A stretch of DNA of 64,000 nt, taken from the NCBI GenBank assembly GCA_951406725.2, contig OX597820.1, positions 60,574,001-60,638,000 on the forward strand. The letters run 5' to 3'. Positions 7,960-62,560 of the stretch are shown one piece after another; the stretch's first letter is position 1; each line of letters starts with the position of its first letter. The notes under the pieces were generated by a model, which saw only the letters and a list, made by a program, of their open reading frames with translations, made no database searches and was not told the DNA's origin. Source of the stretch: Octopus vulgaris (Eukaryota). The position numbers were made by a program, and so were the translations under genes.

Positions 7960-8245
7960 GTATTTGTATTTGTGTATAATTTCTCCGTTTTTTTCCTGTC
8001 CTTGTTTTTGGATATACTTACTGCTTTCTTCCAAGGAACCTAATGCTCTTACCTTAGTTTTTCCTTGGGGCTGGCCAGATTGGAGCAATCTTGAGTATAA
8101 CCAGTCGAAATTGCAAAGATAATCTGGAACTCGAATGACGAAAGAAAACTCCGAATGACCCGTCCTTGTTTTTTCTTATCCCCTTTTTGTATCGTCTGCC
8201 TGGATGTTTTGCGTTCTTGTCCCACTTTTTGTATTCTTGTGTGTG
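7960..8245. repeat. (TA)n-associated interspersed repeat, family X
   Basis: Similar to 51245-51500 (opposite strand) and 54381-54520: CCTTGGGRCTGGCCAGATYGGAGCAATCT...GAAATTGC...CGTTCTTGTCCCA. Confidence 0.7.
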
Positions 8246-24008: not shown

Positions 24009-24179
24009 TAATATATATATTTATATATATGTGTGTGTGTGTATAAAATCAAAATAAGCAACAGGATATTTTGATTTTATTCACCTTACTTCGAGCTGTG
24101 CGGATAATACCGGACTGACTTGGTGCTTCAACTTAAGTACCTAATTAAACTGACTCTCAATTATACATACATATGGCCG

Positions 24180-24240
24180 GATAACTGAAGAGATGGGTGC
24201 GTGGGTTTCCGCCCCGACATCTGAAACTCGGAGTTTTATC
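24180..24240 (+). ncRNA. Type I hammerhead ribozyme motif
   Basis: gataa-CUGAAGA-gatg ggtgcg...cgcccc ga catc t-GAAA-CUC(g)GAG-UU-ttatc. Perfect 5-bp stem I and near-palindromic stem III. Confidence 0.7.
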
Positions 24241-24275
24241 ATGGCTACCGAATAATTGTCACATATTATATTTAC

Positions 24276-28030: not shown

Positions 28031-31790
<3,760 letters not shown>

Positions 31791-44629: not shown

Positions 44630-46830
44630 TTAGTCAGGTGGTGTGGTAGTGGGTGTTGCTGTTCCATTCGTGTTTTCTATTGAGACTAGGTCTGTCTACT
44701 GTTATGAGTGTAGCCTCTGTGATCTGTCTAAGTGTCGCGTCAGTTCTATATGTCGATAGTACTTTAACTTCTATGCTATTAATCGAGCCTCCATTGACGA
44801 GCTTTTGCCTTCTTTGAGCTCTCACCAATGTGTCACCTATACGCTCTCCTATGCTGCATACAGTCTTTCCAATGTAGGTAGTTGTCATGTTTCTGCACTG
44901 TCCCACAATACATCGTAAGCTATATTCCTAACATTCCTAACCTTACAGTTAACCTGTGGGTTCATCCTATATACAACACAATTGTACTCCGTACAGGGGG
45001 ACATATCAAAAGGATAGGTATTGCAGATCAGGAATTTTAAAGGGTCAGCAGGCCTCTCTCTACTACTTTCATTTGTAGATTAACCTTGCTCAATGTTTTT
45101 TTCTAAAAAGGTGTGCTAGTTCGCTGCCAGGGGTAGCATCACCGAAGATGACACTCTGGTATTTTTTGTTGTCATACCAAGTGTTGGCCTTCTTTATTTT
45201 ATTACTGGTCCTTTCCGTGCTGTTCTAGGATTTACTCCCGTACAGTGGGCAGATTCCCTTAGCATCACTCTCTATGATGGCTTTATACTTAGTCCTGGTT
45301 CCTTTGTACACTCTAATCCTGTCCCTTTGGTTGTAGCCAGAGAACTGCATGCCGTGGATGAAGTGTTGTGTGTGTTTTTACAATTCCATAGAGTCGCACA
45401 TGCGAGACACACTCTTCATCACTCTCACCAAGTCAGCTATAAGAATGTTGAACTTGGCGTTGTCCGCAATCGCTGCGTTCTTGTGGACAATGTACTGAGA
45501 GGCCATGGGTTTAGCAAAATGAGAGTGAAGGATCTGGACCTTACCTTTCTTCGTTTCTAGCCAGAGTTCAGTGTCTAAAACAAGGAATCTATAGTTAGGG
45601 CACTTACTAGGGTAGTCTATCGTTATTTCTATTCTCTGGTGGATGGATTTAGCTATTTGTTGGATGCTCTCCATAGCATTAGCTTCTAGAACATCAACAT
45701 TGTCTTGTAGGGGTGCTCTTGCTACTATGTTAATATCGTACACGTAGCGGGGGTACATGGTTAAGTTTATGGAGTTCTATGCTAATTTCTCTTTAAGTCT
45801 CCTACCCCACCATACCATAAATAGGTTATCCACATCGCCAGCAATACTGACTTCCTCTTGGGCGTATATCTTGTTATTAAACTTAAATATATATCCCTTG
45901 AGTGTGGTCTTAGTACTCGCACCCACCGCAAGTGGGACCATCTTTTTAACCGGATCATTATTTTCGGGGGTCCGTATAGCTCTGGCCCATCCGTTCCATC
46001 TCTCTTTAGGGATCTTCTTGGCCATAGCAGTTATAGTGGGTGGATCTACCTCTTATCGATCTAGTGAGGCAGAAACAACTAAGGTCATGTAGTCAGTCTC
46101 AGGAGGAGGCCTAGTTCTTCAGTGTCAACACCACGGAAATCCGCATCACTCTCACCGCTCACCTCCACACATTTCTCCATAGCAAAATCAACACCAATGG
46201 ATGGGTATAGGGACACTACGTCCATACTGCCTATTATGCATCGCGTCAGGTCGTGGGCATGGTTGCGCTTATTGATTCTGCTGAGACATTTTTATCAGAT
46301 GCAGTATGATCATTGAGCGGAAGTTGGAGATCTGGGACTTGTTGGCAACATTGCCTCCGCAGACCTGTCTCGTCGGTGGTCCTGTCACTAGGTCGGTGGT
46401 CATCTTATGGTCTTTGCGCAGTTCATACAGTGCCGGGATGTCGTTGTTGGCGGCCGGGAAGTTGTTGGCCGTGTGCTTCTTTACCCCTAAGATGTTTGAC
46501 CACATCATCATATGAGCATTGAAGATCTTCTCCCTCTCTTCATACTCCCATATCGTTGTTTCCCTCATATTGGTGATCTGGGGCTTCATCGCCTGGATGT
46601 AGTTCGGCAGGCTGCCTACCGACATTCTGCCGGACTTGTTTGTGGGGAAGTACGTGACTTCCCTATTTCTTGTGCGCTGTAAGAGCTTGAGCAGGCCACC
46701 TGCGGACTTCTTGTCGTGTTGCTGTGCCTCTTTACCACTCCGTCTTGTAGTGTATTGTTCTAAAATCTGTCTAAGTTTAGTACTGGTCATGGTGAATCAT
46801 GCTTCTATTTCGTCATTTCTCTGTTGAGGC
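44630..46830 (-). mobile_element. Penelope-like retroelement (RT + GIY-YIG endonuclease), decayed
   Basis: YFPTNKSG; YELRKDHK; PTRQVCGG; DVVSLYPS; FNNKIYAQ; PRYVYDI (YVDD); RFLVLDTEL; C..C..TYIGKT...IGER; LRQITEATLI...PSLNRKHEW. Multiple frameshifts. Confidence 0.88.
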
Positions 46831-51133: not shown

Positions 51134-51663
<530 letters not shown>

Positions 51664-52305: not shown

Positions 52306-52376
<71 letters not shown>

Positions 52377-52378
<2 letters not shown>

Positions 52379-52863
52379 ATATATAAATGTCTTCCTGGGG
52401 TTAAAAATAACAGTAACACCGTCCTCTATAGGACCACCGTATTTAGTTGGCAAATATATTTTACGATTCCGTGCTCTTACTGTTTTGCTCTCGCTTGGAG
52501 ATATAATGTAACTTATCTCTCTCTTTACGAGATCAGCGACAGCGTGTCGCTAGAAAAAAGATATAGCATTTTGTGAATGGAATGAGTTCTTCACCCTTAG
52601 CCAGTGATTAACACACACTGAAGACGGGTAAACACTCAGAAACCTGGGTCTGTGAGTATCACGTAAGGCTAGAGATGGGAGCGATGACCTCCCTCACAAA
52701 CACTAATCGAACACAGACTGAATGTCGTTGGCCAGCCGGAGGAGATGTCTTCCTGGGGCTAAAAACAACAGTAACACCGTCCTCTATAGGACCGCCTCAT
52801 TTAGTTGTCAAATATATTTTACGATTCCAAACTGTTACAGTTTATCTCTTACTCGGAAATTTA

Positions 52864-52866
<3 letters not shown>
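52377..52866 (+). mobile_element. (TA)n-flanked element with ~120-bp imperfect direct repeats (period 358 bp) and a central hammerhead
   Basis: ATGTCTTCCTGGGG...CAGTAACACCGTCCTCTATAGGACC...CAAATATATTTTACGATTCC at 52387 and 52745. Confidence 0.75.
52611..52657 (+). ncRNA. Minimal type I hammerhead motif
   Basis: acacaca-CUGAAGA-c gggt(aaac)actc a-GAAA-CC(ug)GG-UC-tgtgagt; GUC cleavage triplet. Confidence 0.72.
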
Positions 52867-52916
<50 letters not shown>

Positions 52917-53059: not shown

Positions 53060-53167
<108 letters not shown>

Positions 53168-53232
53168 GGTCCCGGGTTGAGTCGGGGTTAACCACAGTAA
53201 ATAAGGTACTCAATACATAGCAGAGTAAATTA

Positions 53233-53364
53233 ATTTATTATATAGAAGGAGCTTCTACAGGACTAGAACTGTTTCATTCAGAAGAAATCATCAGGAAGCT
53301 TCCTGATGATTTCTTTTCAATGAAACAGTTCTAGTCCTGTAGAAGCTCCTTCTATATGATAAAT
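53233..53364. ncRNA. 132-bp near-perfect palindrome encoding a type I hammerhead on each strand
   Basis: Centre AAG|CTT at 53298/53299. Plus strand: agcttc-CUGAUGA-tttcttttcaat-GAAA-CAG(ttctagtc)CUGU-A-gaagct. The minus arm gives the same motif with stem II ttc(ttct)gaa. Confidence 0.78.
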
Positions 53365-53489
53365 ATATATATATATATATATATATGCCACATATATATG
53401 GCGGTGCCATATATATATGGCGGTGCCCCAGCATGGCCACAGCTCATAAGCTGAAACTAGAATCAATCAATCATATATATATATATAAA

Positions 53490-54330: not shown

Positions 54331-54362
<32 letters not shown>

Positions 54363-54380
54363 ATATATATATATATATAT

Positions 54381-54522
54381 CAAGATTAATCAGCCGAAAT
54401 TACTACGATGATCCGGTTCTTGACTGAAGACTGAGGGTTTCGAATGTCCTGTCCGTATTTATTGTGTCGTCTTCTAAGAGTTATACGTTCTTGTCCATGT
54501 TGTATTTTTCTACATACCTTAA
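54381..54522. repeat. (TA)n-flanked fragment of family X
   Basis: CAAGATTAATCAGCCGAAATT matches the reverse complement of ~51363-51383. Confidence 0.75.
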
Positions 54523-54543
54523 TATATATATATATATATATAT

Positions 54544-55847: not shown

Positions 55848-56905
55848 ATATTTATATGTGCAAGGCAGCTAACCTCTATGATGGTACCTACTTTTACCCC
55901 TCTGTCTCAAGCAACAATATCCGAGCTGTTACGGTTACATTTGACAGAAGTTTTGATAGGAATATTCCACGAGTATTCCTTGAGTTGGTGTTTATGAATG
56001 TATTCCATGACAGGGATTTTCTAAGTTTATTTCAGGACAGTCATTTTTGTGGATGGCATTGTAAATTGTTTAAGCAACAACATCATACGGCATAGGTGGG
56101 TACTCCCGTGACATCATTTTAGGACAGCTGCTAATCACATGCGTAATGTCTTTCACAGAAACATGACATAGCCTTCACGCGCAGTTGCACCTTGGAATTA
56201 CAAGAGCGTCACTGTCTCTCTTGTTCACCAGGTACTTTGTGGCCATCTCCTGTTCCTGGATTGCAATTGCATAGCCTTCAAAGTGTGATGTGATGTGATG
56301 TGATGTGGTGGTTTTGTGTCCAAGAAAGGCTGCGCTTCGTATCAATTCTACTGTCCATTTCAAGCTTCCGGACAGCACACACATGCATGGCCTTTTTTTA
56401 AAATCATTTTGTATGCTAAGTGCTTTCCATCCAGGTCTTCTCTGAGGTAAGAGAGCCCAGCTGTTTTGGGTCTGTATAGGAGATTCTCACGAAGACAGGG
56501 TTTCTTGAAAAGTTCACTGCCAACTTGTACAATGTTGCTCACTTCACTTTTCAGGATTGCATTAATATATTTGTTTTTGCTGCAGTTGTTTAGCAGGTGC
56601 TGTCTGAGTGATACCATACGGTATCTGAAGGCCGTCTGCACTGATCTCAGGCCTCTACCACCTTCATCTCTTAGGTAGAGTCTGTCAACAGCACTGTTTC
56701 TGTGGAAGTTCCCAGTTGTTGCCAGGATTTTGCGGGCTTTGATATCTATGGAGTGGATTTCCTTTACAGACCAGTCAAGTATCCAAAATGTTGGGACCAG
56801 CACTGGTACTGAAAATGCATTGTGGGATATTGTTTTGTTGTAAGAGGAGAGTTCTGACTGCCATATTTTCCTAAGTCTGGTGTAATATTCTCGGGTCACT
56901 CTATC
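55848..56905 (-). mobile_element. R4/Dong-like RLE retrotransposon fragment (third family)
   Basis: REYYTRLRKIWQSELSSYNK...NFHRNSAVDRLYLRDEGGRGL; EGYAIAIQEQE; DITHVISSCPKM; DIVA*D...IIEVSC. Confidence 0.85.
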
Positions 56906-57379
56906 TTTATTGTATGTATGTATGTATGCATGTATGTATGTATGTATGTATGTATGTATGTATGTATGTATGTATGTATGTATGTATGTATGTATGTATG
57001 TATGTATGTATGTATGTATGTATGTATGTATGTATGTATGTATGTATGTATGAATGAATGAATGAATGAATGTATGAATGAGTGAATGAATTAATATCTG
57101 CCAAGTATTTACGCACTACTGAGAAGAGCGCAAGTCAGGTGGGCAAGATACCTTGTTAGAATACTGTTCCTTCGAATCGCATCTTACTCTGTAGCGTAGC
57201 TGGAGTGGGGAGGGTAGTAAGCTATTTGCCTCTGGGTGACGCTTTTATAAGTTGGCAGTTTTTAGTCTGTTGTTGAAGCCCATATAGGCTGTATTGAGGG
57301 ATGGGGAGAAGGCGCGGGCTCAATACAGCACCACTGAAAGTACTGCCTTTAAAAATTGTAAGCTATTTCGGGTAAAATC

Positions 57380-60744: not shown

Positions 60745-62560
60745 ATCCATTGTTTGCCTAAACATTACATAGAAACTGTACACAAGCTATCTCAACCATT
60801 CCCTCCAGGATCATTATGAATTCGCCAACAGTGATTGATGAGCAGGCAGGTGGAAAGAAGTGAGTATGGGGATGTGCCGAACAACTTTTGATAGACAAAG
60901 CTGTACTGTCTGAAGTAAGAAAACACTGTAGAAGTCGTGTGCAATATGGGTTGATTATAGGAAAGCCTTCGACTCTACTCTCCACTCATGGTTGCTGAAG
61001 TGTTTACATTTGGCAAAAGAACCTGTTACTTTAGTTGTTGCTATTCAGAAGCTCACAAAGATTTGGATAACAATTCCCACACAACTGAGAGTGGAACAAT
61101 CATTTCCAATGTTTTAAATATTTCAATGGGAATATTCCAAGGAGATATTCTTCCTATAATTCTGCTCACTTTGGCATTAAATGTATCATTATTTCTGTTG
61201 CAAAAATCAAACGGCTAAATGCTAATATCTGCAACTGCTAGAGATAATAATGTGGCCCATACATTGTTTGAGTATGACCTCAATATTTATGCAAAAAATG
61301 ATAATAATGCCAAAAAGAAAGAAAAAACTCAGCTGGAGTTAATAACAGCATTTTCAGCTGACAGGAATAGAATTTGACAAAAAGAAATGCTCTTATTTGA
61401 TTACTGAACGGGAAAAACCAGTCCCCACTATACCTATGTACCAACGGACACTATCTCTCTTGTCCCGCACAAAGAATGCTACAAATACCTTGATATTGAT
61501 AAAAGCATATCATTCGAAGGTACTGTGAATAAGGACGGAATGACCCGAAAATATTATGCTAGGTTCAGAATGATATGGCAGTCGGAACTCTGCCCTTACA
61601 ACAAGACAGTATCTCACAATGCATTTACAGTAGCAGTACTGATTCCAACATTTTGGATACTTGACTGGTCTGTAGAGAAAATTCGCTACATACACATTAA
61701 AACCCGCAAAATCCTGGCATTAACTGGAAACTTCCACAGAAACAGTGATCCCGATAGGCTCTACCTAAGAAGAGATAAAGGAGGTTCCAGGCTTGAGATT
61801 AGTACAGACGGCTTCGAACAACAGCAGCAAAAATACTTGATACTTGATACTGAAAAGCAAAGAGAATAACATTCTATGTGTCGTCAGTGAACTTCCTAGG
61901 AAGCACTTGCTTCCTGACAGCTTTCCATATAACCCCTAAACAGTTTAACTGGCATAACTAAAGGAAAACCTAGATGTGAAGCACTCAGCATACCAAAAGG
62001 GGGAAAAAAGACTGTATAAGTATGTTTGCAGAAGATTTGGAGAAGACAGTAATATCGGCATGAAGTGCAGCCTCTCGGACTCGTGATTGTTACATCACAT
62101 TACACATCGAAAGCTATGCATTTGTAATTCAAGGAAAGGCGAATGCTACGAAATGCCTCGTAAACAAAAGAAACAGCGAAGTATTTGAAGCCCCAAGATG
62201 AAACCGAAATGTAGATAATGTCACGCTTCCCTGGAAGACAACGACGCACATGTAATTAGCAGTTGCCTCAAAATGCCATAAATGTCGCTAAAACAATGCC
62301 ATCCGAATAAGAAAGATTGGCTCAGAATAAATATAGAGACCTCCTACCGCCTGTTATTGAGTACATACACCAGCAACGAAAGGGATACAGGAGGAGCATT
62401 CTCAACAAAACCTCTATCAAGTGTAAGCACAACAGGTTAACAGGTCGGATATTGTTGTTTGGGACGGACAAGAAAAGTATGTACAGTCATCGAGGCTGTC
62501 CTCCTAATGGGAATATCTCTTCAAAGAGAAGAAAATAACTTCAGATTTCGAAACCTCCAG
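60745..62560 (+). mobile_element. R4/Dong-like RLE retrotransposon, decayed, same family as 55848-56905
   Basis: EQAGGKK*VWGCAEQLLIDKAVL; WVDYRKAFDS; GIFQGDILP; YKYL; RKYYARFRMIWQSELCPYNK...NFHRNSDPDRLYL; HVISSCLKM. Confidence 0.88.

Follow-up and report, generated by a model that had tools for sequence, protein, structure and literature searches.

A hammerhead-bearing head-to-head palindrome in Octopus vulgaris, probably a decaying remnant of a Penelope-like retrotransposon

The window analysed here, a stretch of 64,000 nucleotides of Octopus vulgaris DNA (contig OX597820.1, positions 60,574,001 to 60,638,000 of the forward strand), is microsatellite-rich animal-type DNA with retroelement remnants. 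Its positions 53233-53364 form an inverted repeat of 132 bp, centred between 53298 and 53299, in which 63 of 66 pairs are complementary, bearing out the near-perfect palindrome described in an earlier note on this DNA. A window-wide inverted-repeat scan returned it as the only long non-simple match. The left arm (53233-53298) carries a type I hammerhead motif on the minus strand and the right arm (53299-53364) another on the plus strand, and the self-complementary AGCT at the centre (53297-53300) is common to both arms, forming part of the 5' strand of stem I on each strand, as had been claimed. The three arm mismatches are located at 53281/53316 in loop II, at 53279/53318 in the loop-closing pair of stem II (plus arm) and at 53239/53358 outside the ribozyme, so that only one of them falls in the stem II loop, where most had been placed before.

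Two features were overlooked in the first reading, namely a 68-nt 3' extension of the left arm and (TA)n sequence at both ends. The extension, referred to as the tail (53165-53232, minus strand), belongs to the same repeat family as the arms, and the right arm has none. The left flank is a (TA)n microsatellite (53088-53164) that is likely to be the target site, and a second (TA)n microsatellite (53364-53386) forms the right flank; as both flanks are (TA)n, a target-site duplication is indistinguishable there. No second copy or tandem unit of the family was found elsewhere within the window. A MITE reading was rejected, since the two ends are unlike each other and correspond to 3' ends of retroelements. 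Further to the right, 53390-53460 (plus strand) holds a 19-nt direct repeat and, after it, 42 nt from a dispersed repeat that is matched at 11 other places in the window.

Each strand holds the core of a type I hammerhead, consisting of CUGAUGA, GAAA and a GUA triplet together with a 6-bp stem I and a 4-bp stem III, and on either strand the 5' strand of stem I crosses the palindrome centre. In the left arm, the core runs from 53294 to 53288, stem II from 53287 to 53276 and the GAAA from 53275 to 53272, with a predicted cut at 53256/53255; in the right arm, the same parts occupy 53303-53309, 53310-53321 and 53322-53325, with a predicted cut at 53341/53342. The 8-nt loop of stem III has a self-complementary centre, for which a dimer pairing of -14.2 kcal/mol is predicted. 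The type I order, the core nucleotides, the NUH triplet and stems I and III are those of a canonical hammerhead, and the G10.1-C11.1 pair and the stem II of ~4 bp are lacking on both arms. Stem II is instead closed by U·U at 10.1-11.1, in place of a G-C pair described as highly conserved in hammerheads (PMC4209133; for stem II conservation, PMC2837043), and comprises three pairs on the minus arm and two on the plus arm, where the change at 53318 has cost one.

No Rfam hammerhead family matched at gathering score anywhere in the window or appeared among the 93 and 74 rows at E<=10, and the miRNA-precursor rows in Rfam were rejected as generic hairpin matches below the gathering score. When both strands of the window were scanned with a descriptor, three type I hammerhead candidates emerged, namely the two mirror motifs, counting as one observation, and one at 24185. 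With strict stem limits only the two mirror motifs passed, and one of 30 block shuffles of the window gave a match; with loose limits at least one match arose in 10 of 30 block shuffles. The stem limits were chosen after the sequence had been read, and a pattern count of 2 against a mean of 0.01 is likewise tailored to the finding and not independent of it. Of the earlier claim that either strand carries an intact ribozyme, the core and stems I and III are confirmed, and the part that fails concerns stem II, with its U·U and the pair lost on the plus arm, and the missing Rfam match. The most fitting label for the motif is that of a hammerhead variant whose activity is unproven.

The folding predictions leave hardly any room for such activity in the complete palindrome. 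The predicted rod fold of the 132 nt reaches -100.5 (plus) and -95.1 (minus) kcal/mol, with z about -20 and none of 200 shuffles as good. When the hammerhead helices were enforced on the same 132-nt RNA, the best fold had -28.0 (plus) and -26.6 (minus) kcal/mol, a predicted gap of ~70 kcal/mol on both strands, and the predicted share of the ribozyme fold in the full palindrome RNA was ~1e-51 (plus) and ~1e-48 (minus). As the transcript grows, the antisense arm always comes first, so the central hairpin is predicted to have become the most stable fold by 53306-53309, when the core is still unfinished. Even for a lone arm, the predicted share of the active fold was ~2e-3 (minus) and ~6e-7 (plus). 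Both ribozymes are thus predicted to be locked shut in the hairpin, and the switch between rod and ribozyme proposed in the earlier note is not expected, as the rod is predicted to be ~70 kcal/mol more stable.

These predictions also bear on the proposal of a viroid-like ambisense unit whose RNA would alternate between the rod form and active ribozymes in both polarities. Viroid-like elements are described as circular RNAs with one ribozyme per polarity, among which rod-like ambisense cases are known (PMC10162972), and the locus resembles them in having a full catalytic core on both strands, one motif in each polarity, and a rod-like predicted fold. It is, however, a stretch of linear genomic DNA in which each strand could be cut at one site, and it is composed of mirror copies of one sequence and devoid of any circular, multimeric or repeat unit; its mirror arms are decaying, its ribozyme fold is predicted to be inaccessible, and an exact core string of 20-24 nt had no match in viral, metagenome or prokaryote genome contigs. 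The viroid comparison accordingly breaks down, and such a unit is an extremely improbable explanation.

The arms and tail belong to a family that recurs in public sequencing runs. Some part of 53165-53366 was present in 20 of the 24 listed public runs, from 11 studies under 6 organism labels, and half or more of 18 sampled words occurred in 8 runs. All contigs of four runs (3 organism labels) were aligned to 53165-53418 at 85% likeness, giving 7,098, 913, 1,723 and 102 aligned contigs; 53351-53418 was skipped as repeat in this alignment and has no cover, the right junction included. No run that holds the family is recorded as RNA, one of them, X9, being guessed to be RNA. The folded arm depth attained 2.9 million in one run, compared with 26-100 for single junction contigs, from which it is roughly inferred that the family has on the order of a thousand copies or more, although depth as such gives no copy number. 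No description of the family was found in the literature or, by marker strings, in the supplements of three papers, and it may already be catalogued in Repbase or Dfam. The catalytic core has no listed variants, which was not taken as a sign of selection, since only 5 covered positions pass the 3% listing limit.

Past the left arm, the family continues for another 68 nt and reaches 53165, from where the TA run of the window takes over. This tail region is covered by contigs from all four runs, some of them running from tail into arm, and tail depth amounts to 0.27-0.53 of arm depth. In all four runs, TA-run loose ends occur at 53229-53234, which is the mirror position of the right-arm end, and other contigs extend to 53165-53170. 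As loose ends in TA runs mark the short end and contigs reach the long one, the family has two 3' ends, the longer supported by fewer listed rows than the shorter; the locus therefore carries one of each, with the right arm stopping at the short 3' end.

Both arms have changes of their own. At 53281, A makes up 79-96% of the family depth, and the change in the left arm is private; at 53318, G makes up 97-100%, and the change in the right arm is private as well. For the change at 53358 the same is probable, there being no listed variant at its mirror site. Such arm-specific changes relative to the family indicate that this copy is decaying. They also count against a fold-back generated during assembly or library preparation, a concern that arises from the lack of any contig of the four runs spanning the locus, from the uncovered right junction and from the difficulty that inverted structures of Penelope-like elements are reported to cause for assemblers (PMC8557442). 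An artefact would hardly give arms that differ at three sites, two of them private against the family, and that are unequal in length and end at natural family ends, with similar junctions in independent runs, and it is accordingly considered very improbable.

More can be learned from contigs in which the family meets itself. Among 32 listed of 9,866 pieces, three cross the centre, with 4, 4 and 1 gaps, only one of them having ~31 letters on either side, and seven end at 53297-53300. The AGCT is thus a frequent 5' boundary of family pieces. Eight other head-to-head joints were recorded, of which three link part of a tail to a copy whose start lies at 53297/8 and five start in stem II; each is a single contig with 20-29 letters on its short side at 85% likeness, and all are flagged as weak. 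Boundaries at 53297, 53298 or 53300 were shared by three of the eight joints and by 5 among 24 listed of 97 loose-end rows. Relative to the arm, the summed (folded) depth of the centre comes to 0.14-0.34, depth being a weak measure that drops near any boundary. In one crossing contig, a 4-nt insertion would fit a second centre at an adjacent CTAG.

These data qualify the idea that the palindrome is itself a propagating unit. In one such scheme, the AGCT-centred palindrome would depend on a Penelope-type enzyme acting in trans, which would put hairpin transcripts of this non-autonomous mini-element back into the genome as a unit. The centre-crossing contigs come from three runs, one of these contigs (94 nt, 5 differences, 1 gap) from the run guessed to be RNA, and pseudo-LTRs (pLTRs) are described as able to act in trans (PMC3846280). 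The two arms carry the same letter at the polymorphic sites 53240 and 53314, which counts weakly in favour of the scheme, as such agreement is estimated to arise by chance at ~0.3, and the arm changes at 53281 and 53358 are both A>G on the plus strand, as hairpin editing would give, with n=2 being too few. On the other side, the centres of the junctions differ, the centre depth falls short of the flat profile expected of a fixed palindrome, weak as that measure is, and one 245-nt contig leaves the family at the centre to continue upstream with 169 nt of other sequence. The earlier suggestion of a propagating unit is weakened by the several different centres and the low centre depth, and the mini-element is regarded as unlikely.

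In one run, two loose-end sets have ~22 nt of pyrimidine-rich sequence in common upstream of the family boundary, and this sequence ends beside the AG of the palindrome centre. The pyrimidine-rich stretch and the AG might together act as a 3' splice site, and for Penelope of Drosophila virilis an intron is described as ending at the 5' end of helix I (PMC4209133). The same two sets, being independent, point to a longer parent and speak against an origin outside the Penelope group, be it a non-Penelope hammerhead repeat (retrozyme or SINE-like) or a later fold-back during DNA repair of a microsatellite break. That many pieces stop at the AGCT boundary and that the arms in the window adjoin no ORF would suit such an origin, and retrozyme monomers are reported to be common in some animal genomes (bioRxiv 10.64898/2026.07.22.740005). 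Like non-LTR retrozymes, the family is a many-copy, non-coding repeat of an animal genome with a type I hammerhead; retrozymes are, however, described as tandem arrays (PMC7229834; bioRxiv 10.64898/2026.07.22.740005), whereas the arrangement here is inverted and tandem units are absent at the locus. Repair, in turn, would not select the family's own two 3' ends, at which the arms end. Taken together, these origins are decidedly improbable.

The locus probably goes back to a Penelope-like retrotransposon that inserted once into a (TA)n tract and left two pLTR pieces head to head, a remnant that is now decaying and whose two ribozyme motifs are likely a by-product. This reading builds on what was observed, namely arms that mirror each other, a 68-nt tail confined to one of them, TA on either flank, a family with many copies and, relative to that family, two changes that are each specific to one arm; on structural grounds, membership in the Penelope-like elements is likely. 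The features that define pLTRs recur here, including a hammerhead in the terminal repeat (at the level of the motif), a head-to-head 5'-truncated copy with a palindromic junction, an optional 3' tail on one arm with two preferred 3' ends, and insertion into AT-rich or (TA)n DNA. The suggestion of a reverse-transcription product resembling the inverted pLTRs of Penelope, already made in the earlier note, is therefore in agreement with both the family data and the published architecture (PMC8557442, PMC3846280).

That architecture is described as frequently including, at the 5' end, a copy that is inverted and 5'-truncated, together with a tail of 30-40 bp at one end and a (TA)n bias (PMC8557442), the preference for (TA)n being recorded for the cephalopod Naiad and for Hydra families in the supplement of the same paper. 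In Pen2 and Pen3 of Adineta vaga, the inverted pLTR overlaps the direct one, palindromes occur at the junction and the head-to-head arrangement is usual (PMC3846280). The locus shares with these inverted pLTRs the head-to-head copies, the palindromic overlap at the junction, the tail on one arm, the hammerhead and the insertion in (TA)n. It differs from them in having no ORF between or beside the arms, an insert of only ~200 bp, a tail of 68 nt instead of 30-40, and an overlap of only 4 nt that is centred in the 5' strand of stem I, so that the full stem I is kept on both strands. An annotation of Octopus vulgaris reports 6.83% Penelope-like DNA, with no mention of hammerheads in its main text (PMC13282606).

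The hammerhead is described as conserved among the components of pLTRs, where close pairs with the two motifs on opposite strands, separated by 100-700 bp, have also been noted (PMC4209133). In common with the metazoan hammerheads of Penelope-like elements treated there, the motifs have the type I order, the CUGANGA and GAAA boxes, a 6-bp helix I, AU-rich flanks and a self-complementary helix III loop with the potential for a dimer. Unlike them, helix II is short (3 bp) and AU-rich, with U·U in place of G10.1-C11.1, helix III (4 bp with an 8-nt loop) exceeds that of minimal motifs, and the spacing of 100-700 bp is replaced by an overlap of the two motifs.

For the formation of the palindrome, it is proposed that a GIY-YIG endonuclease of the element would nick both (TA)n strands and that each 3' end would prime reverse transcription on uncleaved element RNA from either of two internal start sites that lie ~65 nt from each other. 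The two cDNAs would halt at the foot of stem I and anneal via the self-complementary AGCT, and fill-in would then yield the palindrome. An element of the anole offers a precedent, in which both strands are nicked and extended, uncleaved RNA serves as template, and two internal starts of reverse transcription define the tail (PMC11167929). If the pLTR reading holds, such twin priming has slightly better than even chances and is favoured because it explains both the arms ending at natural family ends and the full stem I on both strands. Fold-back of one cDNA would account for the arm symmetry as well, agrees in a weak way with the letters that the arms share at 53240 and 53314, as expected of one template, and has a fair claim to be second, with chances clearly below even, while self-priming on antisense RNA seems quite unlikely here; it is this route, and not twin priming, that Arkhipova and colleagues proposed for such palindromes (PMC3846280). 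Read-through RNA from either strand would form the 66-bp rod and stay uncleaved, becoming a dsRNA substrate for ADAR or Dicer.

A bolder version, possible though doubtful, holds that the AGCT palindrome is a recurrent standard mini-element and that the family routinely inserts as a head-to-head pair of one tail-plus and one tail-minus copy. A dimeric Penelope enzyme would then prime from both nicked strands, and the cDNAs would be joined via self-complementary 4-mers at the foot of stem I, with the ribozyme sequence setting the junction. If this were true, the many copies would amount to a direct genomic test of how the inverted repeats of Penelope form.

As a single locus, what looks like a decaying retroelement remnant is of little weight, and the family is more useful. 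Being short and present in many copies, with two 3' ends and a junction hot spot, it would let the three priming mechanisms be separated by copy counts, and the origin of the tandem and inverted structures of Penelope-like elements has been described as undefined (PMC8557442). Hairpins of this kind might also become targets of ADAR editing or sources of siRNAs, in the way that inverted Penelope copies in Drosophila are reported to yield siRNAs (PMC3681739).

Elsewhere in the window, three further TA-flanked hammerhead-like repeats were observed. In the TA-flanked unit at 52376-52868 (plus strand), the sequence at 52387-52510 recurs at 52745-52868 as a direct repeat of 124 bp (85% identity), the two copies being 358 bp apart. 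Between them, at ~52612-52657, lies a minimal hammerhead-like motif, and the whole looks like a partial-tandem pLTR or a retrozyme-like unit. The microsatellite-flanked repeat copies at 54356-54525 (plus) and 51247-51387 (minus) match at 82% over 141 bp and include a hammerhead-like box whose second box is off consensus; a weaker third match lies at 8098-8174. At 24173-24245 (plus), a type I hammerhead candidate has a long stem II, a 5-bp stem I and a triplet ending in U, and is followed after ~30 nt by a TA run.

Coding remnants are present as well. Broken ORFs at 45378-46796 (minus), among them the decayed ORF 45378-45776, resemble a Penelope-type reverse transcriptase. For ORF 45378-45776, one homologue was obtained among six candidates, with 49% identity over half of the query, and no supporting Pfam family was found. 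A non-LTR retrotransposon remnant with a zf-RVT match and homologues bearing PF00078 occupies 28463-31276 (minus), its frame staying open through a long trinucleotide repeat that is read as poly-Glu, and fragments related to this remnant lie at 56360-57115 and 61408-61869.
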